A stretch of DNA of 64,000 nt from Promethearchaeota archaeon. Lineage in GTDB: Archaea; Asgardarchaeota; Lokiarchaeia; Sigyniarchaeales; SOKP01. Every line of letters starts with the position of its first letter. Position 1 is the first letter of the stretch. Location: the NCBI GenBank assembly GCA_016930515.1, contig JAFGGO010000158.1:32001-96000 (forward strand). The letters are read 5' to 3'. Of this stretch, positions 1 to 15,418 are shown one piece after another. Below the pieces are notes generated by a model. That model saw nothing but the letters and a program-made list of their open reading frames with translations, had not been told where the DNA came from and did no database searches. The position numbers were made by a program, and so were the translations under genes.

Positions 1-2
1 TT

Positions 3-632: not shown

Positions 633-837
633 ATTGGCTCTCGTCTCGCACGCAATTGCAACCGATAATTGAGTGTTACACCTCAAACGTTTTTTTTCTT
701 CTAAAGTGTTTGAAATGTCACTAATATTTTCTATGAGTTCATATAATAGCTTTAAATACTAAAGGGTTATAATTAAATTATCTGTATCATTATTTTAATT
801 TCAAGGAAACACCAATTAAAAATAGGAAAGGTGAAAC

Positions 838-1692
838 ATGTCAAACTATAACTATAACGATGATGAAGAAGACGAATATGGTATGGGCAAACCGCCCGTA
901 GAACCTCCTTTAACACCTCCCCCACGAGCACCTGGAACTGCTCCGCCTCCGCCATCCGTTCCTCCAGCGCCCACTTTTTCAGCCTCTCCCCCTCCTTCGC
1001 AATCTTACTCGGCAGCCCCCGCAGCCCCCTCCACGCAGCAATATCAAAACACGGTTAACCAGCTCCAAACCCAAGTCGGTCAATTACAAGCACAAGTGAG
1101 TTCCAAGGACGCTCAGATCAACCAATTAAATTCTCAACTCAATTCCGTACAATCTTCCATTCAAGGTTATCAGAATCAGATTGCCCAGTTGAACAACGAA
1201 CGAGGTCAACTTCAAGCCCAGATTCCCGGGCTCCAAAGTCAAATATCGCAATTACAACAACAAAATTCAATGTTATCGGGACAAATAGGGCCGCTTCAGG
1301 CACAAATCGCTAAATTAACTGATGAACTCAGGTATAAAGACAAGAGAATCGCTGAATTGAAAGAACCGGTTCCTGTTATGACCAGTTCATTATCTCAAAG
1401 TTCAGGCTCTCAAGGATTAAGTGGTACTTCGTTTCCGGGATCTTATGGTAGCTCGTCGTATGCAACACCTTCTCCCGCCTCACCCTCCCCTGAAATATCC
1501 GCCTCACCCGCACCCGCAGCTACTCCAGACTCTTCTTCCGGAGGAATGGGTGCTAGAAGAGTATGCGTGAACTGTGGGGCAACGGGTAATGCCATCCGGG
1601 AAGTTGAAGACAGGTCGAGAATAATAAGTTACATTCCCAAAACGATTTATGCGAAGCAATTTCAGTGTTCTAAATGCGGATACACATTTTAA
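838..1692 (+). CDS. Pro-rich / Gln-rich coiled-coil protein with C-terminal Zn ribbon
   Basis: Acidic N-terminus, polyproline tract, about 100 aa of heptad repeats, Ser/Pro linker, CVNC...CSKC. GGAAAGGTGA SD-like motif upstream. Confidence 0.8.
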   Translation: MSNYNYNDDEEDEYGMGKPPVEPPLTPPPRAPGTAPPPPSVPPAPTFSASPPPSQSYSAAPAAPSTQQYQNTVNQLQTQVGQLQAQVSSKDAQINQLNSQLNSVQSSIQGYQNQIAQLNNERGQLQAQIPGLQSQISQLQQQNSMLSGQIGPLQAQIAKLTDELRYKDKRIAELKEPVPVMTSSLSQSSGSQGLSGTSFPGSYGSSSYATPSPASPSPEISASPAPAATPDSSSGGMGARRVCVNCGATGNAIREVEDRSRIISYIPKTIYAKQFQCSKCGYTF

Positions 1693-1728
1693 AATTAGTG
1701 AATTTTACATTCGTCATCAGAATTTTCT

Positions 1729-1797
1729 AAATCAAAAATGTGTAAAGCAATTGATTGCTGTTTGATTTTAATTTCTATTTCTTTTTTTATTTTTTTC
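1729..1797 (+). terminator. Probable terminator (imperfect hairpin plus T-rich tract)
   Basis: AAATCAAA...AGCAAT-TG-ATTGCT...TTTGATTT followed by poly-T runs just after the 838-1692 stop. Confidence 0.45.
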
Positions 1798-1988
1798 TCG
1801 TGATTGCTTCTAATTATGGCTTGTGAGCGCTTTAATACACGACGATATAAATTTTTTTAGTTATAAGAGGTTCAATTAAGTCCAATATTAGCTTCTAAAC
1901 GAATCTAAATATATATAAATGATAATTTTGATTACTATTCTAAAACTTGCTAAATAATAATCGTATATAATAATCGCACTGTCTTGCC

Positions 1989-4900
1989 ATGTCTGAAATT
2001 AGAGAAAAAATTTTAGGTCCCAGCAATGTACGATCTCAAATCCTGAAAGTTGTCTTCCTCTCCGTGATTTTAGTTGTAGCCTTTGCGTTTTCCGTGGCAT
2101 TATTAAATATTGCGTTCGGATCATTACGAAATATCCCCAGCGAAAAGCAAAGCAACGCAGATTATGAATATTTAGAGGAAGTGGACATCCCTTTTCCTTT
2201 TGATCCCTTAGCGCTTCTTCAATTATTCCAAGACCTTGGTCTCGAAATAACTCCAGAAATGATTGAGGACCTCTTAGACATGTTTGACGGTGATTTTGAC
2301 GACATTCCGCTTGAAGACTTGGCGGCATTAATGGCTGCGTTAATGTTCTCTAATGTAGAAGTGTTTAGCGTCTACGATCACGAACTCACACCTATAGACG
2401 ATATGGAAGATTACCTGTGGAAGTATGAGTGCTACGATCAGTACCGAGACGGAGTATGGAGTGCTATGGATTCCGATCTCGACACGGTCGACTTTTTCAC
2501 GGATTATACCGAACCTCAACTTGGTTATACAGAAATTTATAAGATTAAGTTCTCAAATCTTAGCGTAAGCGCGGGAACCAATCAATTTACCGCTCCTACC
2601 TTATTTTCTAGCCCGCTTATAATGCAAGGAAGCGTTGAAGCACAACAATTAGACACAGATTCTGTATTAGTACGAGCACAAACAGATGGTTTAAACGGCG
2701 CGGCCTTGAGGGCGTCTTTTGATAGTGATGTGAATACTGATCTGTCTTATCTCTTGAGGGGTGTGAGTTTACCCACGGAAGAGGATTTGAATGGTAGTTG
2801 CGTCTATGTAAGCAATCCATCGAGTGGATACACCCAATTAATCGATACTTACCAGCAAGTTAACGGTGAAGATCTTTTTACATACATTGATCGTTCTTGG
2901 ATGACCGATTTTAAGGTCGTTTACGATGATCTTGCCGCTAACATAATTCAGCCGGAAGATAACGCTTTCATTATTGCCAATAAGATCCGTAATTATCTTC
3001 AATCTAATTACACCCTGAATTATAGTCCCATGCCTGAGACAGAAACCGATCGACTCAACTGGTTTTGCGCTTCTGGAGAAGGTTTATATTCTGATTTTGC
3101 CTCGGTTTTTTGCATCCTTGCAAGGGCATTTGATGTTCCTGCTCGCTTCGTTGACGGCTTTAACAACCGTGCTGTAGAACAAAAAATTGATCCTATCGAA
3201 GGTTCTGGTTTTTCCGTGTTATACAGGAATATCTACAGTTGGGCGGAAATCTTCGTGCCAACAGACGCTCAAGGAAACGGCGCTTGGCAACAATTCGATG
3301 TTTATTACGAAAATTACGAAGGAATCCCTCTCGTACCTCCATTCTTGGAAAGCAATTACACGCTCGATGTAATGTGTAATGGACATTCCATTTATGACCC
3401 ATTCTATGCCTTGGTTGATAGAACCGATTCGATTACCTTATCTGCAAATTTAACCTTAAATTCCGTTCCTGTTCCAGACGAGCTGATCACATTCAAGAAC
3501 TACGGTTCGAGTACCGCGCTTGGAACCGCAACGACAAACTCTTCGGGTATTGCCGAAATAACCGTTCCCGTTGGTAGTTCGCGCGTGGCCGGGCCTAACT
3601 TCGTCATCGGAGAATACTCGCCAAATGTTTTAGGGTTTGGATATTTTATCGTGAACGACACGCTTTCAATTACCTTTAATATAATAAATCCATCGAGTCC
3701 CACGGCAATCAACGTGTCAGATGTAAGCAATTCAACCATATCCGTTAGTGGTTATGTGGAAGATTCGAACTCGAATAGAGTTCGGTACACGAATATTGAA
3801 TTCGCCCTTTACGAAAATGGCACTACAAATCGGTTCTACGCGTTCAATCCAGACACTACCACGGCAGACAATAATGGTGCATTTAGTGCAGACTTGTTCG
3901 TGGACGGTAATTTCGTGGATAAAGGAGATTATCAAGTGTTTGCAAGCGCAATGGGTACTTGGAATTATACCTTTCCTCCAGATACCACGATATACACGAT
4001 TCCATCGCCATATTTTCCCTCGTCAGTGACCGGAATGAGCGCTCCTCAAGCTCTTTTTATTGATAAAGAAATTCCCCTAATCTTGAACTTTTATATAAAT
4101 GATATCCCATCCGATGACGCTTCTAGCCCCATTGTTTCTCGGGGATCAACACTTTCATTGAAAGCGCAAGTGCTTGACCCGATCGGAACGCCAGTTGATG
4201 GTGTTGTGGTTGAATATTACGAATATACCAATGGTACTTTAATAGGATCGGCAACAACCGGTCCAACGGGCAATACAACAACGATTGTAAATTACTTGGT
4301 TGGAAAATATAATGCCACGGTAGGACCGAACTTGCTATATGCAAGAGTTGGATATCAGTATAATTATTCTTATTATATCTTGGACGATAATGTTTCTTTC
4401 TCGTCCATATCATTAACAGGACCTTTTCCAAGTCTCGTGGTAAATAAGACTCAAGGAGATTATTTTATAGTATCAGGATATCTATATGACGAAAAAAGCA
4501 ATGCACCAGTTGAATATTCGAGAGTTACGCTAAGAATGTTTAAAGGAATTACGAATTACGAATTAACAACATCTGTAAATGCTGATGGTTCTTTCTCAAT
4601 AGCGTCTTACGCCACTGGAATGGAAGTTGGAAATTATTCTCTGCGTTTGGATTTTAACGGATCCTATGTGATAAATTCCCCCCATCCATATCCTTATAAT
4701 TTTAACCTTACTTTAATTTCTGGTTATCACATATTTTTGTCAGAATTACAAATAACGGAGTTTAGCCCTATTAGGCTAGATTTTTGGATAAACGACATTC
4801 CTGCTGACGATTATCAGAATCCGGTCATTACCAGATCTAAAAGCGTGAATCTTTCCGTCTATCTTTCGCAAGGGCTAGTTCCTATAAGCGGAAGAGTGTA

Positions 4901-6569
4901 CTTGTATGACTTGACTAACGATACGGATATAGGGTTTATAGATACGGGTAGCGACGGTTTTGCTTGGTTAACATATAATACGACATCAAATACATTGGCT
5001 GGCCCTCACCTGATTCGCGCAAGGTACGGTGCGTCGCTATATAATTATTCTTATTTCGTGTTAAACGCACCGATAACCGTGTCGTTTGATGCGGGGCCCG
5101 ACCCAACCTGGGTGTACGATAACTATTACACCAATAGGACGTTCCGGATTCAAGGTTCTTTAATCGATGCTACAAACGGCCTTCCCATAACAGGAGGAAT
5201 TGTTGAGACTATTCTCGTTGGTGGATTAGATTCTTACCTGACTAGCAATGGTGGAAGTCAGCAAGTGGATAATTTTTTCATATGCAATCAAACAGGGCTA
5301 ATTAACGCATATTATAACATCACGACTGGAACTCCACATCAAAATTACACCCTCAGGCTTGATTTTTACGGTGCATTCTATAACTATTTTGGAATTCCTT
5401 CCTTTCCAAACGTATTAGATCTCAGCTCTTTTAGTAATTTTACAGTTTCAGATTTTGGCCTTAACCAGTTAGAAGTAAGGGATTATTACAATCTCATGAT
5501 CACTTTATTGGTAAATGGAAATCCCGTTCCTTATGTGTATCCCTCAGGAAGTCTTCCTGCGATTGTAAACCTCGGGAATAACATCACATTTAGCGGAACC
5601 GTATACCATTCAACTCCTGTTGGAACAATAAGAATATATGATTATTACGCAAATCCATCAACACCCATAGCTGCTACTCCAACGGATGGTTCGGGAAATT
5701 ACTACATTGAACTCAATACCTCCTCTTATTCTTTACACTCAGGACTCCATCTCTTTAGGGTTACTTATGTTTATATGGGCAGCGAATTTCCAACATACAA
5801 CTCCACATATATAATCGTTGACGAGACGATTAGCAGTTTTTCGATGACCTCTACTGAGTCTAATGTTATTCGAAATGTTGACAGTTTTATTATTTCGGGT
5901 TACCTTCAGGACGGGGGATTTGGGTTAAGAGGATTACAGGTGCAACTAAGGTTATACGATGGAGCAATGGTCGATCGTTCGCAATATTTAATTCTTGAAT
6001 CAGGGTATTCCCTTACGGCCATCACTGATAACTCTGGATATTATCGGTTTGAAATTAATCATTTAAACATCTCGTGTCCCCAGGGAAGTTACACTATAAG
6101 GGTGGAATTTTACGGGAATATAATTCGATCAGATTTTCCCATTTCCATTGGAATATCGGGTGCAATGACCGGTTCAAATAGTAATAGCATTTCTTTAACT
6201 GTTAATGCGGGCATGTATTTTGAATCGTTATTATCTGGTTTTAATACGGATTTTCAACCATTAAATCCATCTGATTGGTACCTTTTTGATGTCCTTCATG
6301 TGTGGGGGCGCTTGGTTTGGGACAATGGTACTGGTGTCTCAGGAGCGACTCTTAACATCACCGTCGAATATAGAGTGAACAATATAGTATTTGCTTATGA
6401 TGACACATTCACGACCGATCCTAACGGTTATTTCAACGGTTCAATAGATGTGGATTCTAGATTTGATGATGTCGAGATGATTAGCCAAACAATTATTTCT
6501 GTAAATTATAATCCAATCGATGATGGTTTTACTTATGTAATAGCACCTGATGAGGAAACATACAACTAA
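1989..6569 (+). CDS. Large membrane-anchored surface glycoprotein: transglutaminase-like domain (catalytic residues substituted) plus tandem Ig-like repeats
   Basis: N-terminal TM; GLYSDFASVFCILARAFDVPARFVDGF, YSWAEIFVP and WQQFD TGase-like motifs; four ~240-aa beta-rich repeats; more than 30 N-x-S/T sequons. Confidence 0.85.
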   Translation: MSEIREKILGPSNVRSQILKVVFLSVILVVAFAFSVALLNIAFGSLRNIPSEKQSNADYEYLEEVDIPFPFDPLALLQLFQDLGLEITPEMIEDLLDMFDGDFDDIPLEDLAALMAALMFSNVEVFSVYDHELTPIDDMEDYLWKYECYDQYRDGVWSAMDSDLDTVDFFTDYTEPQLGYTEIYKIKFSNLSVSAGTNQFTAPTLFSSPLIMQGSVEAQQLDTDSVLVRAQTDGLNGAALRASFDSDVNTDLSYLLRGVSLPTEEDLNGSCVYVSNPSSGYTQLIDTYQQVNGEDLFTYIDRSWMTDFKVVYDDLAANIIQPEDNAFIIANKIRNYLQSNYTLNYSPMPETETDRLNWFCASGEGLYSDFASVFCILARAFDVPARFVDGFNNRAVEQKIDPIEGSGFSVLYRNIYSWAEIFVPTDAQGNGAWQQFDVYYENYEGIPLVPPFLESNYTLDVMCNGHSIYDPFYALVDRTDSITLSANLTLNSVPVPDELITFKNYGSSTALGTATTNSSGIAEITVPVGSSRVAGPNFVIGEYSPNVLGFGYFIVNDTLSITFNIINPSSPTAINVSDVSNSTISVSGYVEDSNSNRVRYTNIEFALYENGTTNRFYAFNPDTTTADNNGAFSADLFVDGNFVDKGDYQVFASAMGTWNYTFPPDTTIYTIPSPYFPSSVTGMSAPQALFIDKEIPLILNFYINDIPSDDASSPIVSRGSTLSLKAQVLDPIGTPVDGVVVEYYEYTNGTLIGSATTGPTGNTTTIVNYLVGKYNATVGPNLLYARVGYQYNYSYYILDDNVSFSSISLTGPFPSLVVNKTQGDYFIVSGYLYDEKSNAPVEYSRVTLRMFKGITNYELTTSVNADGSFSIASYATGMEVGNYSLRLDFNGSYVINSPHPYPYNFNLTLISGYHIFLSELQITEFSPIRLDFWINDIPADDYQNPVITRSKSVNLSVYLSQGLVPISGRVYLYDLTNDTDIGFIDTGSDGFAWLTYNTTSNTLAGPHLIRARYGASLYNYSYFVLNAPITVSFDAGPDPTWVYDNYYTNRTFRIQGSLIDATNGLPITGGIVETILVGGLDSYLTSNGGSQQVDNFFICNQTGLINAYYNITTGTPHQNYTLRLDFYGAFYNYFGIPSFPNVLDLSSFSNFTVSDFGLNQLEVRDYYNLMITLLVNGNPVPYVYPSGSLPAIVNLGNNITFSGTVYHSTPVGTIRIYDYYANPSTPIAATPTDGSGNYYIELNTSSYSLHSGLHLFRVTYVYMGSEFPTYNSTYIIVDETISSFSMTSTESNVIRNVDSFIISGYLQDGGFGLRGLQVQLRLYDGAMVDRSQYLILESGYSLTAITDNSGYYRFEINHLNISCPQGSYTIRVEFYGNIIRSDFPISIGISGAMTGSNSNSISLTVNAGMYFESLLSGFNTDFQPLNPSDWYLFDVLHVWGRLVWDNGTGVSGATLNITVEYRVNNIVFAYDDTFTTDPNGYFNGSIDVDSRFDDVEMISQTIISVNYNPIDDGFTYVIAPDEETYN

Positions 6570-6587
6570 CAAATAATTAAATGAATA

Positions 6588-8219
6588 ATGAATTTACAAG
6601 AAAGAAAAGAAGATAATTCTATCATGTCAAGAAAGCACTCTGAGAAAATAAAAAATCGTGTTAAAGCATTATTTCTATTAATAACGATAGTATTCTTAAT
6701 TTCTACAATTTATATTATCAATTTCGCTAACTTGAATGAATCATCTATTGATTTCGAAAAAGAAGTGAAGCCCTCAGCAATTTGGGCTAATCTAGATCTT
6801 TTAAACACAGAAATAGACGGTAATCGCTATATACTGGGGAATGAAATCGTACCTCTGTACGGTCGGCTTTATCACCCTAAACTTCCATCTCAGAATTATA
6901 TTGGTTATACAGTGCAAGTCATGCTAGATGGTGTCCTTTATCCGTCCTATTATAATATTACGGTAGATCAAGGTTACTTTTATATCTTGAATTTTTCGCT
7001 ACCAGTAGATACCAATGTGTATGTACCCCATACTATCAATGTTTCTGTTTTAAATCCTTTTGATGATGTTAATTATACTAATTCATTTACTATATACGGA
7101 AGCACGGCTTCCTATTTTGACAATGTGATCGTAGATAACGCTCAACCATATTATTCTGGCGAATCAATAGATGTTTCAGGTAGTTTGCTCCTTGGTGATG
7201 ATACTGGAGTCTCTAATGAGCCAATTTACGCAGGTTGGTACGATAATTTGAATAATCCCGTGTATATTTTTGGATCGCCGATCGATAATACTGGTTTGGA
7301 CGGTACATTTACCACATCCGTGCAAACCCCTGATGCGTCGGGGAATCTCACGCTCAGGTTATCTTATTCAAACCCTCCTATCGTGACATATTCCGAAATA
7401 GATTGTTCAAATATATTTGTCTTTCAAAATATAACATTAACGAATCCATCGACCTCAGTAGGAGTTGCAGGGCAGGAATATACCATTTCGGGGAGATTAG
7501 CTTCTGTTTTTGGTAACTTTTATATTTTTAATAGAGCCGTGACGGTAGTCTATAACGATTCCTCTTCCACATATGGTCTTGCCCAAACTGATTCGCAAGG
7601 AAGGTTTACTTGCATGCTCACGCTTCCCAATGTAAATGGTACCGCGAGTTATCAAGTATATTTAAACTCATCAAGTGGACTAGTTCTCGCAGGTACTGTG
7701 CCTGACATACTCATCAATGCCGCTCCCGTGACACCTTCTGGGGGGCCTACAGGTCAAATACCCTTCGCAGATTTTTTTATGGTGTTCATACCAATTGTGG
7801 TCGTCATAGGTGCTGCATTAGCCGGATATGGCTATTACTTCCTGAAAAAACAAAGGAAAGCGTCTTTATCCACTACCATCCCTCTCGAGAAAAAGATTTC
7901 GAACCTTAAAATATTAAAGGAAACGGGCAGGTTGGAAGAAGCCTTGTCGTACTTGTTCAATGCGATTTTTATGACTCTCATTGACGGGAAATACGGTCGG
8001 AAGAAGAAAGAGTTTGAAACGATTCGAGATTTTGCGATCGTTTCGGTAAAGGAATTCAAGATGAAACCAACGGTCGTGTATCCATTCATGACAAAAGTGG
8101 AGGAGATTATCTATTCCAGGCCGTTTGAAATGACCGAAAGCGATTTTTACAGCGCTATAGAATTATTTAGCCGTGTCTATTTCGATCTCACTGGATATAA
8201 TTTCGTGTTAAAATTTTAA
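6588..8219 (+). CDS. Membrane protein with Ig-like ectodomain and cytoplasmic DUF4129-like helical domain
   Basis: N-terminal TM, beta-rich repeats (TDSQGRF), second TM (FFMVFIPIVVVIGAALAGYGYYF), C-terminal ETIRDFA...VEEIIYS. Confidence 0.7.
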   Translation: MNLQERKEDNSIMSRKHSEKIKNRVKALFLLITIVFLISTIYIINFANLNESSIDFEKEVKPSAIWANLDLLNTEIDGNRYILGNEIVPLYGRLYHPKLPSQNYIGYTVQVMLDGVLYPSYYNITVDQGYFYILNFSLPVDTNVYVPHTINVSVLNPFDDVNYTNSFTIYGSTASYFDNVIVDNAQPYYSGESIDVSGSLLLGDDTGVSNEPIYAGWYDNLNNPVYIFGSPIDNTGLDGTFTTSVQTPDASGNLTLRLSYSNPPIVTYSEIDCSNIFVFQNITLTNPSTSVGVAGQEYTISGRLASVFGNFYIFNRAVTVVYNDSSSTYGLAQTDSQGRFTCMLTLPNVNGTASYQVYLNSSSGLVLAGTVPDILINAAPVTPSGGPTGQIPFADFFMVFIPIVVVIGAALAGYGYYFLKKQRKASLSTTIPLEKKISNLKILKETGRLEEALSYLFNAIFMTLIDGKYGRKKKEFETIRDFAIVSVKEFKMKPTVVYPFMTKVEEIIYSRPFEMTESDFYSAIELFSRVYFDLTGYNFVLKF

Positions 8220-8296
8220 CAAAATAAGGTAAAATTACAAAAAGAAAATATTATAAGTGTGAAAAAAATTAATTAATAAAAAAAAGGTTGGATATC

Positions 8297-8683
8297 ATGG
8301 CTAAAAAACCGAACTTGAGAAAAAAAAAGAAGAAACAAGAGCCTGAATATAATGCAAAAGAACGATTTGAAAACGTGAAAATTCTCGTCCAAACAAAACG
8401 GCCGAAGGAGGCAATTGCCTACATCTATTTAGTATACACGGATCTTATCTTTAAGAAACATAAGAAACCTCGAGAACCGTATCAAACCATTCGCGAGTAC
8501 GCCATAACGTGCGTTAATGAACTGGGTTTAAATCCACAAAATACTTATGTCTTCATTAAACAAATAGAAGATATAATATACGGCGGTGTGGAGCCCACGT
8601 CCAAGGAATTCGAATCGACTATTTCATTATTTTCAGCGTTGCACAAGGAAATCACGACCAAATCGTTTTCTTTTAGTTTGTAA
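8297..8683 (+). CDS. Stand-alone DUF4129-like helical protein
   Basis: EAIAYIY...QTIREYA...IEDIIYGG, clearly paralogous to the C-terminus of the preceding gene. Confidence 0.7.
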   Translation: MAKKPNLRKKKKKQEPEYNAKERFENVKILVQTKRPKEAIAYIYLVYTDLIFKKHKKPREPYQTIREYAITCVNELGLNPQNTYVFIKQIEDIIYGGVEPTSKEFESTISLFSALHKEITTKSFSFSL

Positions 8684-8718
8684 AAATCAAATAGTAAATT
8701 TATTCAAAAGGATATATT

Positions 8719-10551
8719 ATGGCAACAACAGGAACGGGAGCATCGTCACTTAAAAGCGTGCAAATTTCCAAGGGTTTATTATACGCGTTTTTTTGCGTGT
8801 ATTTAATCATTTTTGGATTCATCATAATGGATTTTACCGCAGCGTTTCAGATTCAGAACCCTGGATTATTACCCTCGTTCTTTAGTTATATTCCTTACGT
8901 TTGTTTTATTGGAGCTGTTTTTCTAATTTTAGCTTTTATCTGGTTTTTTAGAAATTCAATGGTACAAAAATCTCGAGAAAGTAGGTCCCGAAAGTCAAAA
9001 AAAGGTTCCTTATATAAAAGAGCGCTGTTCGCAATCATATTCGTTTTTGCTTTTATCCCATTGTTTTCTCCCGTTGTCGATCAAGGAAAGAACAATCACT
9101 ATTTTTCCGTATACAATAGTGAATGGAATGGATGCTCTTCCTATCTCGCCGCCATCGAGGCTGCTGGATTCGAAACGATGAGCATTCAATCCAGCTTGAG
9201 CGCAACCGAACGCTTGGATAAATCCGTTTGTTTAGTCCTGTTAGGTCCTAATCAAGTTTATAATCCAATGTTTGATATTCCTTTTTTTATTGGATTCCTC
9301 AACAGTAGTAGTCAAACGAAAAAGAATTCCCTTTTCATAGCACACGACCACGGATCGAGTTATTGGCTTTTATGGGAGGTATTTTTAGCGAATCTTGCAT
9401 CAATGATCTCGGCCGGGGGAAACGCCTCAATGTTTCCAATGACCATTATGGCCGATGGCATATTACACGACAATGCTTCGTGCCTTACAAACGAACTAGG
9501 ACAAGGAGATCCCACATTTCCCATAATTACGAATTTGGAACCTCATCCAACAACGGTGGGAGTGTCGCAGGTGATCTTATCGGAAGCTACTGCCGCAGCT
9601 GGTGGAAAATTATTAATTGAAATGTTTGGATGGGATGTGATAGGACAAACTTCAAGCGATAATAGTTGGGTAGATAAAAATGGAGATCACATGTATAGAT
9701 TAAATAATGATTCTACTCCAGCAGACGATTATATTGATTTATCTTTTATTATAGAACCATTAGAAGAAGTTACTGACGTCGATCTTAGTATGCTCGAGAG
9801 ATTTCCCCTCGGGAGTTCTATTGTCGCTCCAACGGTCTTCTTGGCGAAGGAATTGGCAAACACTCGCGTGTTCGTGAGCTCGGATGCCAGTTGTTTTTCC
9901 AACGACCTTTTATTCGACTACGATAATTATCAATTTGGAATGAACATTATCAATTGGCTTACCTATCAAGGTGTTGACGATCCAAACAACTGGGTCATTG
10001 CCTTTGACGAGGCTCACATTCGTCCCGAATATTCTCGCGATCTTACTTCTGCGGGTATATTTGGGCTCATCTTGGAATATGTTGTTCAATTATCAACAAA
10101 TCCCATTACTGCGTGGATTTACCCGCTTTTAGCTGTTTTTACCTTGCGAAAGTACATACCTAAAAAAGATGAAAAAGCAGAAAAGAAAAGGATTGAAGAA
10201 GAAGAAAAAAAGGAAGAAAAAGAAATGTTCCGAACATCAACCTTTTTCACGCAAAAAATTGATTGGTATAAGGAGAAAGGTCGTTATGGAAAGGCCATCA
10301 CGTTGCTATTCAGGAGAATTGAGAGAAAGCTTAACGCTCAATTAGGAGGAAAACAAATTACTACGAACAATGTCATCGATCTCGTAGTGGCGAAGGAAGC
10401 GGGGGGAAAAGTAAACAAGATGAAGTTAAAAAGATTAACGAAAATTATGGATAGATTATTGGCCATTAAAGCTGGAAAAAGTAAAGTAAGAAATCCTCAG
10501 GATTTCGAAGAATTGTTCTTGGAAATGTCCTGGGCGATGAAAAATATATGA
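8719..10551 (+). CDS. DUF4350 (GATase-like/GIFT-like) membrane protein of MoxR clusters
   Basis: Three N-terminal TMs, SVYNSEWNGCS, RVFVSSDASCFSN, NIINWL, VIAFDEAH, then a TM and helical tail; adjacent to moxR. Confidence 0.72.
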   Translation: MATTGTGASSLKSVQISKGLLYAFFCVYLIIFGFIIMDFTAAFQIQNPGLLPSFFSYIPYVCFIGAVFLILAFIWFFRNSMVQKSRESRSRKSKKGSLYKRALFAIIFVFAFIPLFSPVVDQGKNNHYFSVYNSEWNGCSSYLAAIEAAGFETMSIQSSLSATERLDKSVCLVLLGPNQVYNPMFDIPFFIGFLNSSSQTKKNSLFIAHDHGSSYWLLWEVFLANLASMISAGGNASMFPMTIMADGILHDNASCLTNELGQGDPTFPIITNLEPHPTTVGVSQVILSEATAAAGGKLLIEMFGWDVIGQTSSDNSWVDKNGDHMYRLNNDSTPADDYIDLSFIIEPLEEVTDVDLSMLERFPLGSSIVAPTVFLAKELANTRVFVSSDASCFSNDLLFDYDNYQFGMNIINWLTYQGVDDPNNWVIAFDEAHIRPEYSRDLTSAGIFGLILEYVVQLSTNPITAWIYPLLAVFTLRKYIPKKDEKAEKKRIEEEEKKEEKEMFRTSTFFTQKIDWYKEKGRYGKAITLLFRRIERKLNAQLGGKQITTNNVIDLVVAKEAGGKVNKMKLKRLTKIMDRLLAIKAGKSKVRNPQDFEELFLEMSWAMKNI

Positions 10552-10623
10552 TCAATTTTATGTAATTATTGAATAATATAAATAAAAAATATAAAAAATA
10601 ATACAAAATAGGAGTGAAGAAAT

Positions 10624-11601
10624 ATGGCAGAAAAAGCTAAATCTCGAGATTCTAAGGATTCGCTTGATGTAACACCAATACGAGAAATTGCTCAAGATGT
10701 TTTATCAGAGGTATCTCGAGTGATTGTCGGAAACGGAGAAATCTTACAACACTTGTTTGTAGCGCTGCTCGTAAACGGTCACGTGCTCTTGGAAGGAGTT
10801 CCTGGTTTGGGCAAGACAGTCATGGCAAAGACTTTTGCAGAGACCTTGGGGATATCGTTTAAAAGAGTGCAATTCACGCCAGACCTCTTGCCAGCAGATA
10901 TAACAGGAACGAAAATTTTCGACCAACAAGAGGGCGCTTTCGTTCTTCAAAAAGGACCTATATTTGCAAACCTCGTGCTTGCAGATGAAATCAATAGAAG
11001 TGCCCCAAAGACGCAAGCAGCTCTCCTCGAAGCGATGGCCGAAAGACAGGTCACGATCGAAGGACAAACGCTTATGCTTGAAAAACCGTTCATGGTGGTA
11101 GCTACGGAAAATCCGGTGGAAATGGAGGGGACATACCCCTTACCTGAAGCTCAAGTTGATAGATTCCTTTTTAAATTATGGTTGGATTATCCCGAGCATC
11201 AAGAAGAAGTTGAAATCCTTCGAAGACAACTCACTGGCGATTCTCCGTCCGTAGAAACCATCACGAATGGCGAGGAACTATTAGCGGCACAAAAATTGAT
11301 GAATATGGTGTACATTGACGATCGCATCTTGAAATACATTCGGGACATCATTTTAAAGACTCGAAATCACCCTCAAATCGCCTTAGGGTGCGGTCCGCGA
11401 GCTTCCTTGGTGCTCATGAAATGTTCAAAAGCGCGAGCGGCCATTCTTGGCAGGATTTACGTTACACCCGATGATGTACGAGCCCTATCAATGCCCGCTT
11501 TAAACCACAGGATCCTTCTCAAGCCTGAAGCTGAACTTGAAGGTTTGGATGTTAAATCCGTGGTTAAAAGCATACTCGAGGAAATACCCATACCAATTTA
11601 A
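10624..11601 (+). CDS. moxR: MoxR-family AAA+ ATPase
   Basis: HVLLEGVPGLGKT, RVQFTPDLLPADITG, LADEINR, ATENPVEMEGTYPLPEAQVDRF. Confidence 0.97.
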   Translation: MAEKAKSRDSKDSLDVTPIREIAQDVLSEVSRVIVGNGEILQHLFVALLVNGHVLLEGVPGLGKTVMAKTFAETLGISFKRVQFTPDLLPADITGTKIFDQQEGAFVLQKGPIFANLVLADEINRSAPKTQAALLEAMAERQVTIEGQTLMLEKPFMVVATENPVEMEGTYPLPEAQVDRFLFKLWLDYPEHQEEVEILRRQLTGDSPSVETITNGEELLAAQKLMNMVYIDDRILKYIRDIILKTRNHPQIALGCGPRASLVLMKCSKARAAILGRIYVTPDDVRALSMPALNHRILLKPEAELEGLDVKSVVKSILEEIPIPI

Positions 11602-11653
11602 TTGCGCATTAAATTGGAACTAGATCAAGAAAAAAAGTTGGTGGTGGATAAAC

Positions 11654-12982
11654 ATTTTTGGTGGAAAAGGTAGGACATTAATATTATTTGCGGCGTTTTT
11701 CCTATGTGCAGGATTTGCATTCGTAAATTACTTTCTAATTTACTTCGGGATCCTCCTGTTATTTAGTACGGTGATTAGTTTACCGTTTTTTGCGCTGCAC
11801 ATGAATGTGGAGGAATTAATTGTACACCGAGAACTTGACAAGGAAAAAGTTTTTCGGGACGATTTTTTGCATGTTAAAGTAGTAATTGAAAACACTGGAA
11901 GGCACAATTTTGACTTTTTAGAAATTCGAGATTATTACAATCCCCAACTTTTTAGATTAATCCTCGGAGAAAATTTCATCTCAACGAGAATAGGCGCAAA
12001 AAAAACTATTAAGTTTTCATATATCCTCGAGCCCAAAGTAAGAGGAGAATATCCATTAGGACCGTTGTCCTTAACCGTAAAAGATAGGTTGGGATTCAAT
12101 TCCACCGAGCGAATTGTTCCTAACAGTGTAACGGATATTCTAGTTTATCCGCCTTACGAAGACATCAAGAGGATCGAAATCTTGGGATCAAAAAGGTCCT
12201 TACAATTAAATTACGGTTCTCAAAGGTCCAAGCAGAAAGGTACGGGTACCGAATTCTACGGAATGAGGAGGTACGCGTTTGGAGATCAATTCAGGTTGAT
12301 TGATTGGAAAGCTAGCGTTCGGCAGCAGAGGCTTATCGTGAGAGAACACGAAACCGAAAGGGATGTCACCGTTATGATTTTAGTAGATTCTTCTAGTAGT
12401 ATGGCTGGTGGCGCAATAGAAAACACTAAATTCGAATATGCCATTCGTGCTTGCATGTTATTAACTAAAGTATCACTCACGAGAAGAGATAGCGTTGGAG
12501 TTTATACTTTTTCCGATAAAAAAAACTTCAAGTTCTTGAAACCAAATCGGGGGGATGATCAGTTTTATACCGTATTGGATTTCGTTGCGAGAGTAAAACC
12601 TGCGGCAAAATGCCGGTTTGCCGAAGCAATGGACACGTTCACGAAGAGATTTCAAAAACGCAGTCTGATCTTTATCATATCCGATTTAGAATCAAACACG
12701 AAGGATATAACCGAAGGTATAAAGAAATTGCTTCCTTTCAATCATTCTGTTATCTTGATCAATCCGTTCTCGCCGTGGTTTGAAATTCACGAAATGGATT
12801 TATCTTCCACGGATAAAGCCTTGGCAGAAGCAATTAGTGAGGAGATGATGGAACACATCTTAGCTATCAAGCAAGAAATCAGCAGATTAGGCGTTAATCT
12901 CGTAACTTGTGGACCCGACGACATGCTAAATCAAGTATTAGCAAATTATATGGAGGCAAAGAAAAAGGGAAAGGCGTATTAA
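11654..12982 (+). CDS. DUF58 / vWA-domain protein (MoxR partner) with N-terminal TM hairpin
   Basis: GTEFYGMRRYAFGD..R.IDWKAS, MIDAS-like DSSSSM, IISDL. The frame extends upstream of GTG 11771 through a hydrophobic segment; probable start is ATT 11654. Confidence 0.9.
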   Translation: MFGGKGRTLILFAAFFLCAGFAFVNYFLIYFGILLLFSTVISLPFFALHMNVEELIVHRELDKEKVFRDDFLHVKVVIENTGRHNFDFLEIRDYYNPQLFRLILGENFISTRIGAKKTIKFSYILEPKVRGEYPLGPLSLTVKDRLGFNSTERIVPNSVTDILVYPPYEDIKRIEILGSKRSLQLNYGSQRSKQKGTGTEFYGMRRYAFGDQFRLIDWKASVRQQRLIVREHETERDVTVMILVDSSSSMAGGAIENTKFEYAIRACMLLTKVSLTRRDSVGVYTFSDKKNFKFLKPNRGDDQFYTVLDFVARVKPAAKCRFAEAMDTFTKRFQKRSLIFIISDLESNTKDITEGIKKLLPFNHSVILINPFSPWFEIHEMDLSSTDKALAEAISEEMMEHILAIKQEISRLGVNLVTCGPDDMLNQVLANYMEAKKKGKAY

Positions 12983-12985
12983 ACC

Positions 12986-14461
12986 ATGGCACGAAATTAT
13001 TTGTTAGGATTGAGACTCGTTAATGGAATCATATTTATAATCGTTTTATCAATATTTTTAAGCGTTTTTAATTACCTGGCGATTCTTTACACGGATACCG
13101 GAGAATTAGCCATAGTTGCATTTATATTTTCTATTAAAAACGTTTTAACTTATTTTATTTTTATCGTGATCTACGGTATCGGATATATGGTTTCTTTTGT
13201 CGTTACTTTTGGACAAGCTGAGTCGATAAGGGCGGTTCAATCGTTTTTTAGGACCCTTTTTAGTTCCTGGTTTAGTTTTTCCACACCAACGGGAGAAGCT
13301 CCTGAGTTGGAAAATATACTTGATGAGGTCTTGGAAGAATTACAGATCTTTCTTTCAGATGCCTACTTGATCATCTTTCAAGTCTGCTTCATCATTGCCA
13401 TTATTTATGCGATCAGGGCAATTTACAAGAGCAATCCGAAGTACAACCTCAGGTCGATTGGTGGTTTGATGTTAATGATTATCATCCCAATAATGGTATT
13501 TGGATTTAAAGACATGATGGCGCTATTTGGTTTCCCAATAGAACTCCTTGTCCCTCAACTCGCAGATTTACCCAATCCTGTAAGTTCTAGCGTTAATGAA
13601 CTTCCTATTGACGATTTTTTCTTGTTTATTAGCAGTTCGATCTCTGGACTTGCCATATTCGCTTATATATATTTAGAGCTCGCCTTTCAAATTAATTATA
13701 CGGATTTGGTTACTAAACCTTCCCTCGAAAGAAGCGATCGTTTACAAGCTCAATTGAGATTGTTAAAAAAAGAGTCTACCCATGTGATCGCAAATGTTGA
13801 TAAAATAAAGGAAGAAGCAAAAAAAAGAAAGGAAGAATTAGAACTAAAAAAAGAATCGGTGGGGAAATTGTTTTCGAGCACGATTAGCTCTAGCTTTTCT
13901 TATGTTAAGGAAATGATAGAAAAGAAAAAACTCGAGGCTGAAGAAAAGAAGCTCGTCACCGCTGCCTCTAAGACCAGAAGATTGGGACGGTTTATTGAGC
14001 GTCTTTTTCAAGAAGACTCAGAAGCTGAGGACACAATTACTGCGAAATCGGCCGCCCCTAGGGCCATGCATCTTGCAAAATCGACTGTTATAAATTTTTC
14101 CATTCGTCTCATGCTTCTTATCATCATTAGCTTTATTATAATTCACCCGGAATGGTTCCTTTCGAATATCTTCCAGTTACCCCCTGCCATCAGTAAAAGC
14201 GTGGTGTTACAAGGTTCCCCCGAGGGGATTATCATTTTATTACTTCCGATTATTGTTGTAATTCCTGTAATTTCATTGGCAATCTCCTATTCGAAACATA
14301 GAAACCTCATGATTAGGCTAAGGCAAGAAGGAAAGATAAAACAAATACTCACGACAGTCGGGGATTATGTGAAAATTGAAGAGGAAGAAAAACCTGAAGA
14401 AGCAGAGAAAGAAAGCGCAGAGCCCTCGCTCACTCCAGAATCATCTCCTGAACCCTCGTGA
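12986..14461 (+). CDS. Polytopic membrane protein with cytoplasmic coiled coil (last gene of the MoxR operon)
   Basis: About 7 hydrophobic helices with a charged coiled-coil loop; starts 3 bp after the DUF58 gene. Confidence 0.7.
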   Translation: MARNYLLGLRLVNGIIFIIVLSIFLSVFNYLAILYTDTGELAIVAFIFSIKNVLTYFIFIVIYGIGYMVSFVVTFGQAESIRAVQSFFRTLFSSWFSFSTPTGEAPELENILDEVLEELQIFLSDAYLIIFQVCFIIAIIYAIRAIYKSNPKYNLRSIGGLMLMIIIPIMVFGFKDMMALFGFPIELLVPQLADLPNPVSSSVNELPIDDFFLFISSSISGLAIFAYIYLELAFQINYTDLVTKPSLERSDRLQAQLRLLKKESTHVIANVDKIKEEAKKRKEELELKKESVGKLFSSTISSSFSYVKEMIEKKKLEAEEKKLVTAASKTRRLGRFIERLFQEDSEAEDTITAKSAAPRAMHLAKSTVINFSIRLMLLIIISFIIIHPEWFLSNIFQLPPAISKSVVLQGSPEGIIILLLPIIVVIPVISLAISYSKHRNLMIRLRQEGKIKQILTTVGDYVKIEEEEKPEEAEKESAEPSLTPESSPEPS

Positions 14462-14467
14462 TTGTTA

Positions 14468-15418
14468 TTATAATTCTAAATCTAGCACGAATCTCGCTAG
14501 ATCTTCCTTTTTTTTCTGGTCCTTCATGATAGTATCAAAACAATGCGCTTGGATTCCTAAATTATCGATCTCTATTTTTCGATCGTAATCCTCGCTATCA
14601 ATAACGAAATGTGAAATTATATCTTGGTAATATTTGGCAACTCCAACACAAGACGCTTCGTGGCCTAAAGCTTCCATTAACTTATCTGCAGGGCCTTTTA
14701 AGGTAGCACCTTTAATTATTGGGCTTATTGCAATAACCTTTTTATGTGCATTTTTTAACGCTTCTTTAATACCCAAGACGCTTAAGATAGTCCCGATAGA
14801 AACAATCGGGTTTGAAGGACATATGATAATTCTTTCGGCGCTCTTAATATAATCGAATATTGCTTTTATGGGTCTTGCGTTCTTATTACCCCTAAATTCG
14901 ATCTTTATGACTCTTGGTTCACATCGCTCTTTTATGAAATATTCCTCAAAATGCATGGTACCAGAAGGCGTTTGAATGTAAGTTTGGAACTCCTCGTTAC
15001 ACATGGGAACAATTCGTGCTTTAATGCCTAGTTTTTGGGTAATAGCTTGTGTTGCTTCGTACTTGTTAAAACCTTTAGCGATTAAATCAGTGCGGAAAAT
15101 GTGGGTGGCTAGATCCTTATCCCCTGCGTTAAACCATCCAATTCCATAGTACTTACTCAGAATATTCAAGCAATTAAACGATTCGTCTTGAAATCCCCAT
15201 CCTTTTTGATCATCCACTACTCCCGCAAGCGTGTAGGTTATGATATCCAAGTCGGGACATATTTTTAAGCCGAATAAATCTATATCGTCCCCTGTATTTA
15301 CTACTATAGCAATATCCTCTTGGTCCACCACGCTGGCAATGCCCTTGACAAACTTTGCTGCCCCGACTCCTCCTGCTAACAATAAATATTTTGTACGATT
15401 GATGATATTTCCCCTCAA
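14468..15418 (-). CDS. cofD: 2-phospho-L-lactate/PEP transferase (F420-0 synthesis)
   Basis: LAGGVGAAKF, NTGDD, ICPDLD, GDKDLATH, HFEEYF, PSNPIVSIG, GPADKLM. Confidence 0.95.
   Translation of the reverse strand: MRGNIINRTKYLLLAGGVGAAKFVKGIASVVDQEDIAIVVNTGDDIDLFGLKICPDLDIITYTLAGVVDDQKGWGFQDESFNCLNILSKYYGIGWFNAGDKDLATHIFRTDLIAKGFNKYEATQAITQKLGIKARIVPMCNEEFQTYIQTPSGTMHFEEYFIKERCEPRVIKIEFRGNKNARPIKAIFDYIKSAERIIICPSNPIVSIGTILSVLGIKEALKNAHKKVIAISPIIKGATLKGPADKLMEALGHEASCVGVAKYYQDIISHFVIDSEDYDRKIEIDNLGIQAHCFDTIMKDQKKKEDLARFVLDLEL

Follow-up and report, generated by a model that had tools for sequence, protein, structure and literature searches.

Between positions 1989 and 14461 of the 64,000-nucleotide stretch of DNA analyzed here (hereafter, the window), seven open reading frames follow one another on the + strand, and an ORF check recovered all of them where the initial annotation had placed its seven co-directional genes (g1 to g7). 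The intergenic gaps from g1 to g7 measure 18, 68, 35, 72, 52, and 3 bp when the DUF58 gene (g6) is taken to start at an ATT codon at 11654; with this start the earlier description of every gap as shorter than 80 bp holds, but it fails if g6 starts at the first ATG/GTG/TTG codon, at 11771, which leaves a gap of 169 bp. At 85–89% A+T, the intergenic sequence might contain internal promoters. Close homologs carry source names (e.g., Promethearchaeota) that point to an Asgard origin for the window, in keeping with the Asgard-type host proposed earlier. The domain assignments made for the seven products were likewise borne out, by direct Pfam matches for g1, g5, and g6, and through orthologs for DUF4350 (g4) and DUF4129 (g2 and g3).

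The first gene, g1 (1989..6569, + strand), encodes a TgpA-like giant of 1526 aa, which starts with an N-terminal transmembrane (TM) anchor and an acidic stretch and continues with a pre-TGase region like that of TgpA, a transglutaminase core (approximately residues 314–437), and a long stalk of Ig-like/CarboxypepD_reg repeats that lacks a C-terminal anchor. The anchor is the only TM (residues 21–39), and 37 N-x-S/T sequons are distributed over the following 1487 residues. Pfam identifies Transglut_core (E 2e-13, 50.9 bits, cut-off 23) together with CarboxypepD_reg and Ig-like domains, and when a profile of the family's N-terminal part is searched against the PDB, TgpA (6g49) comes first (E 3.4e-17), with animal TGases behind at 1e-5. 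The polytopic TgpA_N domain was not found in g1, which has a single N-terminal TM instead; among its orthologs, TgpA_N matches are weak and fall on the soluble pre-TGase part. Of the catalytic triad, g1 keeps only the Asp, with Tyr in place of both Cys and His; in all eight aligned family orthologs the His is likewise replaced by Tyr, and the Cys by Tyr, Trp, or Phe. The Cys is missing from most other Asgard lineages too, and a few (L043, L045) keep Cys-His-Asp. Judged from these substitutions, the transglutaminase domain of g1 is catalytically dead, with Cys and His lost throughout its family, so that neither cross-linking nor proteolysis by g1 would be expected. The g1 polypeptide also lacks a C-terminal TM and DUF4129 tail, which sit on a separate gene, g2.

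That gene (6588..8219, + strand; 543 aa) encodes an ectodomain between two TMs, the second of which is followed by a helical DUF4129 bundle in the cytoplasm (approximately residues 420–540); the ectodomain (346 aa, acidic, with 10 sequons) is Ig-like by weak matches only. The next gene, g3 (8288..8683, + strand), encodes a stand-alone soluble cytoplasmic DUF4129 module of 131 aa, or probably 128 aa from an ATG at 8297, with neither TMs nor sequons. Pfam gave no direct match on g2 as a whole and no PF13559 match on the g2 tail or g3, and the DUF4129 label for both rests on their orthologs rather than on matches of the window's own proteins. PF13559 matches 7 of the 14 aligned modules homologous to the g2 tail or g3 (best E 7e-15). 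The g2 C-terminus aligns both with g3 (36% identity, E 8e-20) and with the C-termini of fused giants in other Asgard families, whose tails, when scanned alone, exceed the PF13559 cut-off in six of seven cases. A protein atlas additionally places g3 in a DUF4129 cluster (0.96). In those other families g1 and g2 correspond to one protein with the TgpA architecture (TM, TGase, Ig repeats, TM, DUF4129). On these alignments, g1 and g2 represent a single ancestral TgpA-like protein that has been split in two, with g2 as the C-terminal half, and g3 is a duplicated DUF4129 tail, paralogous to that of g2. The tail is a separate 149-aa TM protein in one lineage, and the module (the "handle" of the mechanism considered below) can therefore act in trans.

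The AF2 model of g3 (pLDDT 88.3) is a five-helix bundle that most closely resembles 9cap_B (Z 10.2, rmsd 3.3 A over 97 residues), with several HEPN-fold chains scoring almost equally (Z of approximately 9). As modeled, the DUF4129 fold is HEPN-like and also matches the eukaryotic NICE-3/C1orf43 (Spigot) family. At the sequence level, the NICE-3 model (PF07406, cut-off 22.7) matches DUF4129 tails in other Asgard families only, some of them above the cut-off (L056:1465-1914 at 25.4 bits, L046 at 23.7 bits), and there only over model positions of approximately 111–179 out of 181; no match was obtained on g2 or g3 directly, nor anywhere in the window's genome.

The product of g4 (8719..10551, + strand; 610 aa) is a DUF4350 (GldG/ABC_transp_aux-like) membrane protein. 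Three TMs are predicted at its N terminus, followed by an extracellular alpha/beta DUF4350 domain; a further TM then leads through a charged linker to a helical C-terminal domain in the cytoplasm. Against PF14258 it scores 14 bits (E 0.06), under the cut-off of 30.4; homologs at 53–83% identity carry PF14258, and the ortholog L044:9356-10651 reaches 74.9 bits (E 1.3e-20) and also passes the PF09822 cut-off. We thus place g4 in DUF4350 by orthology and not by direct match. It shows the arCOG01314 layout of TM, large ectodomain, and TM, and its three N-terminal TMs compare with one in most Asgard families and six to eight in a sister family. The C-terminal domain may be DUF4129-like: its profile aligns with that of DUF4129 at an hhalign probability of 71% (E 3.7e-5), and BLASTP and Pfam found no match between the tail and DUF4129.

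Next, g5 (10624..11601, + strand; 325 aa) encodes a cytoplasmic MoxR-proper AAA+ ATPase, with Pfam matches to AAA_3 (E 4e-65, 218 bits, cut-off 27) and AAA_lid_2 (E 6e-23, 80.7 bits, cut-off 22.7) and, in its translation, intact Walker A (GVPGLGKT) and Walker B (DEINR within LADEINR) motifs. Its closest solved structure is MoxR 2r44 (E 8e-81), with midasin next, and it scores 38 bits against the bpMoxR model. The following gene, g6 (11654..12982, + strand; 442 aa from the ATT), encodes a membrane-tethered DUF58/vWA protein in which an N-terminal TM hairpin is predicted to precede a cytoplasmic DUF58 body made up of a beta-sandwich and a vWA domain (DUF58: E 2e-30, 106 bits, cut-off 23.4; VWA_2: E 4e-11, 44 bits), with the MIDAS motif DxSxS intact as DSSSS. 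The hairpin is encoded between an in-frame TAG at 11621 and a GTG at 11771; its approximately 44 hydrophobic residues (11654–11790) begin upstream of the first canonical start, and orthologs align from residue 1, hairpin included. Among 11 DUF58 orthologs, the start codon is ATT or ATA in seven and ATG, TTG, or GTG in four, each start having a GGTGG/GGAGG tract 5–9 nt upstream; this comparison supports translation from ATT 11654.

The last gene, g7 (12986..14461, + strand; 491 aa), encodes a protein with approximately seven TMs and a coiled-coil hairpin of approximately 130 residues, predicted to lie in the cytoplasm between TM5 and TM6. The AF2 model (pLDDT 73.5) contains long helices at residues 218–292 and 302–343, and our alignment shows three invariant residues, R374 (within TM6), S405, and E413. 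Pfam gave no match, structural comparison gave no convincing fold match, and a profile search of 1.84 billion representatives returned 139 matches. The family is thus small, and its named members all come from Asgard-type MAGs, two of which are labeled Korarchaeota. Wherever a g7 homolog was found it lies directly 3' of DUF58, even where the cluster is split.

The ectodomains are acidic and sequon-rich, and MoxR, DUF58, g3, and the g2 tail are basic and sequon-poor; hydropathy, charge, and sequon counts together fit the topology put forward by the initial annotation, with the ectodomains predicted outside and MoxR, DUF58, and the DUF4129 modules inside. Going by sequon density, the one indicator used, the surface proteins are probably glycosylated. 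Mean identity within the family falls from 84% for MoxR and 77% for DUF58 to 62% for g3, 51% for g4 and g7, 34% for g2, and 31.5% for g1, compared with 59% and 55% for the flanking housekeeping genes CofD and CofE; this gradient is the pattern of a conserved, putatively cytoplasmic engine and a diversifying exposed surface.

A relative of g4 is present in 182 of the 201 Asgard genomes searched, and in 84 of the 85 high-quality ones; four near-complete genomes without g4 were tested for g7, and all four lack it as well. The arrangement lies far outside what chance would give, as the 20 loci inspected in other genomes show this gene order again. Synteny, whose absence the initial annotation had listed as a refuting outcome, is thus conserved across the phylum. 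The TGase giant, DUF4350, MoxR, and DUF58 genes remain adjacent in distant Asgard families with different flanks, and within the family synteny extends to the unrelated flanking genes as well (a coiled-coil gene, CofD, and CofE). One relative (G165) has the cluster at two loci, with its halves on different contigs, and in another the MoxR gene is inverted, so that strict co-transcription is not required; in light of both, the phrase "complete machine" used for this locus was too strong. These observations are best explained if the cluster encodes the Lokiarchaeia version of a putative membrane complex that occurs throughout the Asgard archaea, with the TgpA-like surface protein, the DUF4350 protein, MoxR, DUF58, and a polytopic protein of Asgard type as its components.

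For how such a complex might work, the reading that we favor, while holding it at somewhat under an even chance, is that the DUF4129 tails are the point inside the cell at which MoxR and DUF58 take hold of the surface complex, either assembling or switching it; every contact in it is deduced from gene neighborhood and predicted topology. Outside the cell would stand the Ig-repeat stalk of g1 with its dead transglutaminase-like domain serving for binding, the second Ig stalk of g2, and the GldG-like domain of g4. Inside, g2 (and possibly g4) would end in a HEPN-like DUF4129 bundle just past the last TM, with g3 as a free copy, DUF58 would be tethered to the membrane by its hairpin with the vWA/MIDAS domain facing the cytoplasm, and g7 would contribute a cytoplasmic coiled-coil hairpin of approximately 9 nm. 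By analogy with other MoxR-vWA pairs, the vWA domain of DUF58 would bind the DUF4129 tails as handles, the MoxR hexamer would remodel them with ATP, and the surface complex would in this way be assembled, or its conformation or oligomeric state switched, through the membrane. In such an arrangement, a surface structure without any energy supply itself would be under ATP-driven control from the inside out. The surface part might serve adhesion or partner contact, and it may belong to the unidentified "complex surface proteins" that Lokiarchaeum cells carry (PMC9834061).

A bolder version of the favored reading, which we consider distinctly doubtful, sees the cluster as a machine for inside-out mechanotransmission, powered by ATP, by which the Asgard "complex surface proteins" are built or switched, and its TM-anchored DUF4129 handle as the prokaryotic homolog, possibly an Asgard-derived ancestor, of eukaryotic Spigot/C1orf43. 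If this were true, the handle would be related to the subunit that anchors the BLTP1 bridge-like lipid-transfer complex to the ER, and the operon would unite three more relatives of eukaryotic parts, namely MoxR (dynein/midasin AAA+), TGL (ciliary TGL proteins), and a GldG/GIFT-like domain. The last of these we take to be a relative of IFT52.

The same parts can be read from the outside in: the Ig stalk would detect contact with a partner, epibiont, or virus, and the signal would pass through the TMs and DUF4129 tails to DUF58/MoxR, as proposed for the Esr pathway, which combines an Ig-repeat filament, a filament-retaining transglutaminase, MoxR, and vWA. Fast-evolving ectodomains over conserved cytoplasmic parts would suit a sensor, and a dead TGase domain could bind a ligand. 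We nonetheless regard this as an unlikely, if serious, alternative, as kinase, FHA, beta-propeller, and effector domains are missing both from the seven proteins and from the adjoining genes, and an output module cannot be named; the bpMoxR score of 38 bits is far under the 218 bits for AAA_3; and near-universal presence in the phylum would be expected of a housekeeping function in the envelope more than of a variable conflict system. A dedicated secretion or anchoring system, with DUF4350 and the polytopic proteins as conduit or platform and with MoxR and DUF58 exporting, inserting, or anchoring the giant, also seems unlikely on balance. The great size of g1 and its lone N-terminal anchor, the polytopic nature of g7 and its want of a convincing fold match, and the DUF4350 ortholog that passes the GldG/ABC_transp_aux model too would all be at home in such a system, and the arCOG01314 neighborhood has been predicted as a novel secretion system (Makarova et al. 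2015, PMC5898192). Its weak points are that the N-terminal signal-anchor TMs of g1 and g2 are ordinary, suiting Sec/YidC insertion, and that the would-be cargo is bitopic in other families, its own tail in the cytoplasm, as befits a resident complex rather than an exported substrate. Moreover, no MoxR-family ATPase is known to translocate proteins.

Two further alternatives carry less weight. It is very unlikely that the surface genes (g1–g4) and the MoxR-DUF58-g7 set are functionally separate modules that are neighbors by inherited gene order only: the split in G165 and the synteny of unrelated flanks within the family would be expected in that case, but the adjacency of TGase giant, DUF4350, MoxR, and DUF58 outlasts the change of flanks in distant Asgard families and is reported outside Asgard too (PMC5898192; PMC3507681), and g4 and g7 are absent together. 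Membrane-proximal proteolysis or cross-linking, in which vWA would recruit substrates, MoxR unfold them, and TGL cleave or cross-link them (Zhang and Aravind 2012; the TgpA enzyme model), we find scarcely credible here. Replacement of Cys and His in the window and in 8 of 8 aligned family orthologs, along with the absence of Cys from most other Asgard lineages, weighs more with us than the prediction made for MoxR-vWA-TGL operons (PMC3495828), the TGase activity of the TgpA periplasmic domain (PMC3507681), or the triad kept in L043 and L045. The TGL domain is, besides, predicted to lie outside the cell, because it is encoded 3' of the signal anchor and among sequon-rich sequence, and it therefore could not receive substrates unfolded by a cytoplasmic ATPase. 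With the triad lost and the domain predicted extracellular, proteolysis or cross-linking by g1 is disfavored for this genome.

The cluster had been nominated as an undescribed system; comparison with the literature shows it to be the Asgard form of a widespread, earlier-predicted gene module. An archaeal neighborhood of DUF4350, MoxR, vWA, and Ig-protein genes was described in 2015 as a predicted arCOG01314 (DUF4350)-associated "secretion or membrane remodelling complex" (Makarova, Galperin and Koonin 2015, PMC5898192). In both, DUF4350, MoxR (COG0714), and vWA are neighbors, and the accompanying genes encode Ig-like proteins of the membrane or surface as well as small polytopic membrane proteins. 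Where the arCOG01314 complex has COG4743/pfam07760 S-layer-like proteins, the Asgard form has a TgpA-like TGase/DUF4129 giant instead, and Pfam gave no COG4743/pfam07760 match among the seven proteins at E <= 0.01; the window's vWA protein is predicted to be cytoplasmic rather than secreted, and its polytopic partner, g7, comes from a small Asgard-type family.

The P. aeruginosa operon PA2875 (MoxR)–PA2874 (DUF58)–tgpA is co-transcribed, and the TGase domain of TgpA is periplasmic and has TGase activity (PMC3507681). Like the Asgard cluster, it pairs MoxR and DUF58 with a membrane protein whose TGase core lies outside the cytoplasm; TgpA ends in a DUF4129 tail, and so do the fused Asgard orthologs. 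TgpA, however, is catalytically active and essential and carries a polytopic TgpA_N, whereas the Asgard proteins mostly lack the Cys and His and have one N-terminal TM and long Ig-repeat insertions; in the archaeal order to which the window belongs, in addition, the giant is split into two genes and accompanied by an extra DUF4129 gene, DUF4350, and g7. [quoted passage not shown]

The only experimentally supported example of an Ig filament, TGase, and MoxR-vWA together that we found in the literature is the Esr pathway of Actinomycetales, which joins an Ig-repeat surface filament, the transglutaminase that retains it, and MoxR-vWA in one threat-sensing pathway (10.64898/2026.09.08.750141). Common to both loci is that an Ig-repeat surface protein, a transglutaminase(-like) protein, and MoxR-vWA are encoded together. 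They differ in that the window's MoxR is of the AAA_3 "proper" type, that Pfam found no beta-propeller, kinase, phosphatase, FHA, or effector domain in the seven proteins, and that the immediate neighbors of the cluster include no beta-propeller, kinase/FHA, effector, or Esx genes. Finally, for the DUF4129 module only, a eukaryotic counterpart can be considered in Spigot/C1orf43 (Pfam NICE-3), a subunit of the BLTP1/LPD-3 lipid-transfer complex (10.1101/2024.06.21.600134). Its partner in eukaryotes is a lipid-transfer protein rather than MoxR or DUF58, but the two share a plan of TM helix, linker, and cytosolic helical bundle that would dock on a partner.

The cluster comprises seven + strand open reading frames: g1 (1989-6569), for which Pfam returns Transglut_core (E 2e-13) together with CarboxypepD_reg and Ig-like domains; g2 (6588-8219); g3 (8288-8683, from a TTG at 8288 as called by the ORF finder); g4 (8719-10551); g5 (10624-11601), a MoxR ATPase with AAA_3 (E 4e-65) and AAA_lid_2; g6 (11771-12982 in the ORF finder's call), with DUF58 (E 2e-30) and VWA_2; and g7 (12986-14461). 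Direct scans of the window proteins against Pfam and NCBIfam gave no significant match for g2, g3, g4 or g7, and an Rfam scan of positions 1-16000 found no RNA family. The source assembly is 94% complete (190 contigs, 4.0 Mb). The cluster is preceded by a histone-deacetylase-type gene and a coiled-coil gene, and followed on the opposite strand by CofD, a CofE-nitroreductase fusion, a radical SAM gene and a lipoate-ligase-type gene. The coiled-coil gene (838-1692) and the CofD and CofE-nitroreductase genes (14468-16830) keep synteny with the cluster throughout the window's taxonomic family, not beyond it, and the fusion is represented by two separate genes at two Asgard loci (L038 and L039). 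Membership of a Bat operon was rejected, as DUF58 alone gives a BatD-like match, below threshold, and BatA, BatB and BatC are absent.

With GTG 11771 as its start, g6 would stand 169 bp from the gene upstream. The frame is open from a TAG at 11621, and the additional part codes for a basic segment and some 44 hydrophobic residues, the predicted membrane hairpin typical of DUF58 proteins. We compared this region (11621-11775) with the aligned position in loci L031-L039 and L042. Orthologues of DUF58, 69-83% identical within the family, align from the residue encoded at ATT 11654; the codon at the aligned start is ATG in two of the 11 loci, TTG in one, GTG in one, ATT in four and ATA in three; a GGTGG/GGAGG Shine-Dalgarno-like tract lies 5-9 nt 5' of it in all 11; and several loci show a stop in the same frame one to three codons 5' of it. 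On the strength of this alignment, the codons, the tracts and the upstream stops, we therefore place the DUF58 start at 11654, whereupon all six intergenic gaps measure 3-72 bp, bearing out the initial annotation's description of gaps under 80 bp. Initiation thus appears to occur at AUU in the window, and at AUU or AUA in seven of the 11 orthologous loci; so weak a start codon may keep DUF58 scarcer than MoxR.

To place this arrangement in a phylum-wide context, we scanned genomes of the Asgard phylum, taking the wider distribution from the papers cited below, and mapped twenty excised regions of 12-20 kb. A g4 relative is present in 182 of 201 sampled Asgard genomes, and in 84 of the 85 of high quality. 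Nine regions from the window's family have a common order of coiled-coil gene, g1 to g7, CofD and CofE, two of the nine contigs ending within or just before g1. At one locus (L033:11056-12033, genome G183) MoxR holds its place between DUF4350 and DUF58 in inverted orientation; the cluster thus stays together without strict co-transcription. Eight regions from seven other families carry a single giant gene (1170-2261 aa), DUF4350, MoxR, DUF58 and a g7 homologue. The giant runs from an N-terminal transmembrane segment (TM) through a weak TgpA_N-like part, a transglutaminase (TGase) core and Ig repeats to a second TM, about 110 residues before the C-terminal end, and a DUF4129 tail. From this fused layout and gene order it follows that the ancestral unit was a five-gene TgpA-like cluster; on the same comparison, within the taxonomic order to which the window belongs, the giant has been split into g1 and g2 and its tail duplicated as g3. 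The split and duplicated arrangement recurs in the sister family (L040-L042). In one genome of that family (G165) the cluster occupies two loci, g1-g4 on L040 (contig C6) and DUF58-g7 on L057 (contig C17), DUF58 and g7 still being adjacent. Four near-complete genomes from the window's and sister families that have no g4 also have no g7, which, the four being kin and not independent cases, is only a hint of joint absence.

The TGase domain of g1 is degenerate. In the TGase-core alignment, the position of the catalytic Cys is occupied by Tyr in the window and by Trp, Phe or Tyr in all eight family orthologues, and that of the His by Tyr in the window and family, with the Asp retained. A TGase or peptidase catalytic model is accordingly rejected for the window's genome, on the substitution of Cys and His. 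Among the other families, the full Cys-His-Asp triad is found only in the L043 and L045 lineages; the L048 core has the Cys and a Tyr at the His position. The best solved relative of the family's N-terminal profile is Pseudomonas aeruginosa TgpA (6g49; E 3.4e-17), followed by animal transglutaminases (1e-5). Comparison of g1 with itself by BLASTP found no internal repeats at E <= 1e-3.

The DUF4350 assignment of g4 rests on its homologues. Full-length homologues are 53-83% identical, many carry PF14258, and the close ones are encoded in MAGs bearing the names Promethearchaeota, Lokiarchaeota or Hermodarchaeota, in keeping with the Asgard identity of the organism; distant Asgard orthologues pass the DUF4350 (74.9 bits) and GldG-type ABC_transp_aux models. 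By hydropathy, the three TMs at the start of g4 are followed by an ectodomain, a fourth, weaker TM and a charged tail. N-terminal TM counts differ between proteins, from one in most Asgard families to three in the window (8719-9080) and six to eight in sister-family proteins of 729-834 aa (L040:8697-10886; L042:8458-10956). Elsewhere in the window's own genome (G000:C113:18293-18940, outside the window), a 472-aa frame gives a second, weak DUF4350-like match (21 bits), on a contig where none of the genome's AAA_3 matches is located.

DUF4129 modules recur through the cluster. The g3 protein and the last ~125 residues of g2 are paralogues (36% identity, E 8e-20), and both align with the C-terminal tails of giants from other Asgard families; one Glu of the module, E94 in g3, is invariant. 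DUF4129 is matched by seven of 14 aligned modules (best E 7e-15), and by six of seven fused tails above the cut-off when these are scanned alone; a protein atlas assigns g3 to a DUF4129 cluster at 0.96. The probable start of g3 is ATG 8297 (MAKK...) rather than TTG 8288, several homologues beginning at the aligned position. The C-terminal helical domain of g4 may be a third DUF4129-like module (hhalign probability 71%, E 3.7e-5); BLASTP found no similarity between g3 and the g4 tail, and Pfam nothing consistent in 13 g4 tails. In one Asgard lineage, DUF4129 is on a 149-aa single-TM protein of its own, between the giant and DUF4350. Sequence searches of the PDB were empty for the DUF4129 profile, a single DUF4129 tail, DUF58 and the window's TGase region alone.

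The last gene, g7, has a narrow distribution. Its AF2 model (pLDDT 73.5) is all-helical, with about seven TMs and a long cytoplasmic coiled-coil hairpin, and neither Pfam nor NCBIfam holds a family for it. A profile of 15 Asgard sequences found only 139 relatives among 1.84 billion representative proteins; the distant ones that carry a name are MAGs of Helarchaeota or Njordarchaeia, apart from two labelled Korarchaeota, one of which sits in a cluster otherwise named Njordarchaeia. The protein atlas returned only g7's own Asgard clusters. Foldseek found nothing in the PDB at E <= 0.001, and a broad structure comparison gave at best Z 7.6 on generic helical bundles, an absence of matches that does not make the fold new. 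Across the 15 divergent Asgard sequences, R374 inside predicted TM6 is invariant, as are S405 and E413 at the outer end of TM7, with P412 nearly so; charged residues within the membrane may point to ion coupling or to a buried salt bridge.

Topology was read from hydropathy, charge and sequon counts. A single N-terminal TM in g1 precedes 1487 acidic residues with 37 N-x-S/T sequons. In g2, two TMs flank an acidic stretch of 346 aa that holds 10 sequons, and the second TM leads into a basic tail of 132 aa. The g3, MoxR and DUF58 body sequences are basic and almost sequon-free, and together with the g7 coiled coil they should be cytoplasmic. Mean identity to orthologues inside the family falls from 84% for MoxR and 77% for DUF58 through 62% for g3 and 51% for both g4 and g7 to 34% for g2 and 31.5% for g1, so that the cytoplasmic engine is strongly constrained and the exposed parts diversify. 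The adjacent housekeeping enzymes CofD (59%) and CofE (55%) are less conserved than this predicted engine.

The sequence thus supplies the parts, their predicted membrane sides, their conservation and their phylum-wide linkage. In the mechanism that we propose, the vWA domain of DUF58, whose MIDAS motif (DSSSS) is intact in translation, would recruit the DUF4129 bundles that the ectodomain proteins carry immediately inside the membrane; MoxR, with Walker motifs that are likewise intact, would remodel these bundles with ATP; and the remodelling would cause a surface complex to be assembled or switched. We regard DUF4129 as the handle because it is the one cytoplasmic element common to TgpA-type proteins, because it is duplicated in the window as the free protein g3, and because one Asgard lineage carries it on the 149-aa single-TM protein. 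The split forms (g1/g2, free g3 and the TM-DUF4129 protein) may be seen as natural "dissections" pointing to DUF4129 as the target of the cytoplasmic machinery. Mechanotransmission of the FtsEX or MacB type is a functional analogy only. The same parts could instead act as an outside-in sensor resembling the actinobacterial Esr pathway, which has an Ig-repeat filament, a transglutaminase and MoxR-vWA (10.64898/2026.09.08.750141), or as a secretion system, as proposed in 2015 (PMC5898192). A proteolysis or cross-linking system (PMC3495828) is disfavoured here on account of the TGL domain, which is dead and, by prediction, outside the cell.

The proposed handle also has a candidate eukaryotic relative. 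The g3 model is a helical bundle (pLDDT 88.3), and the predicted DUF4129 fold is HEPN-like. Of 48,161 chains compared, the one that the g3 model matches best is Spigot (chain B in the LPD-3/BLTP1 complex of Caenorhabditis elegans; Z 10.2, rmsd 3.3 A over 97 residues), followed by many HEPN-fold chains at Z 7-9, all values within the range that helical-bundle arrangement alone can reach; the top Foldseek match is a HEPN protein. Pfam NICE-3 (C1orf43/Spigot) matches six of the seven fused Asgard tails over its last ~70 profile positions, one above cut-off, and scores 25.4 bits (cut-off 22.7) against the 149-aa protein (L056:1465-1914:-). A six-frame NICE-3 search matched 19 of 121 Asgard genomes and none of 14 control genomes; 18 of the 19 matches fall in giant ORFs (1238-2306 aa) or ORFs of ~150 aa, and those whose positions were compared lie directly upstream of the DUF4350 gene. 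The loci concerned are g3 (8288-8683), L056:1465-1914:- and L051-L055. In Spigot, a linker joins a TM to a four-helix bundle in the cytosol, which docks on its partner (bioRxiv 10.1101/2024.06.21.600134), an architecture like that of the 149-aa Asgard protein. Our literature search found no paper linking C1orf43 with DUF4129 or HEPN. We consider DUF4129 and NICE-3/Spigot likely homologues, a claim limited to homology and not extending to an Asgard origin of the eukaryotic protein; were the similarity confirmed, a eukaryotic protein whose origin is unclear would gain a prokaryotic family.

Asgard archaea have no ordered S-layer and display unidentified surface proteins, which are thought to mediate cell-cell contacts relevant to eukaryogenesis (PMC9834061). 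The cluster couples some of the locus's fastest-evolving surface proteins with a strongly conserved cytoplasmic engine, and this pairing and its near-universal presence therefore make it a concrete candidate for Asgard surface building or control. It is not the undescribed system that the initial annotation took it for, as DUF4350, MoxR-vWA-TGL and MoxR-DUF58-tgpA neighbourhoods are already published (PMC5898192, PMC3495828, PMC3507681). Makarova et al. (2015) projected arCOG01314 (DUF4350) back to the archaeal ancestor and predicted that its operons with a COG0714 ATPase, vWA, Ig-like and small membrane proteins encode a secretion or membrane-remodelling complex (PMC5898192); Zhang and Aravind (2012) found MoxR-vWA-TGL operons to be very common (PMC3495828); and Milani et al. 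(2012) reported co-transcription of PA2875, PA2874 and tgpA, as well as the periplasmic TGase activity and essentiality of TgpA (PMC3507681). As prokaryotic gene sets with an untested mechanism go, the MoxR-DUF58-TgpA/DUF4350 module is one of the most widespread. We found no paper on its Asgard version in a literature search; judged from the genomes, that variant is distinguished by near-universality in the phylum, a giant Ig stalk with a TGase domain predicted to be dead, the splitting of the giant and the duplication of its tail in Lokiarchaeia-type genomes, and an Asgard-type g7 partner.
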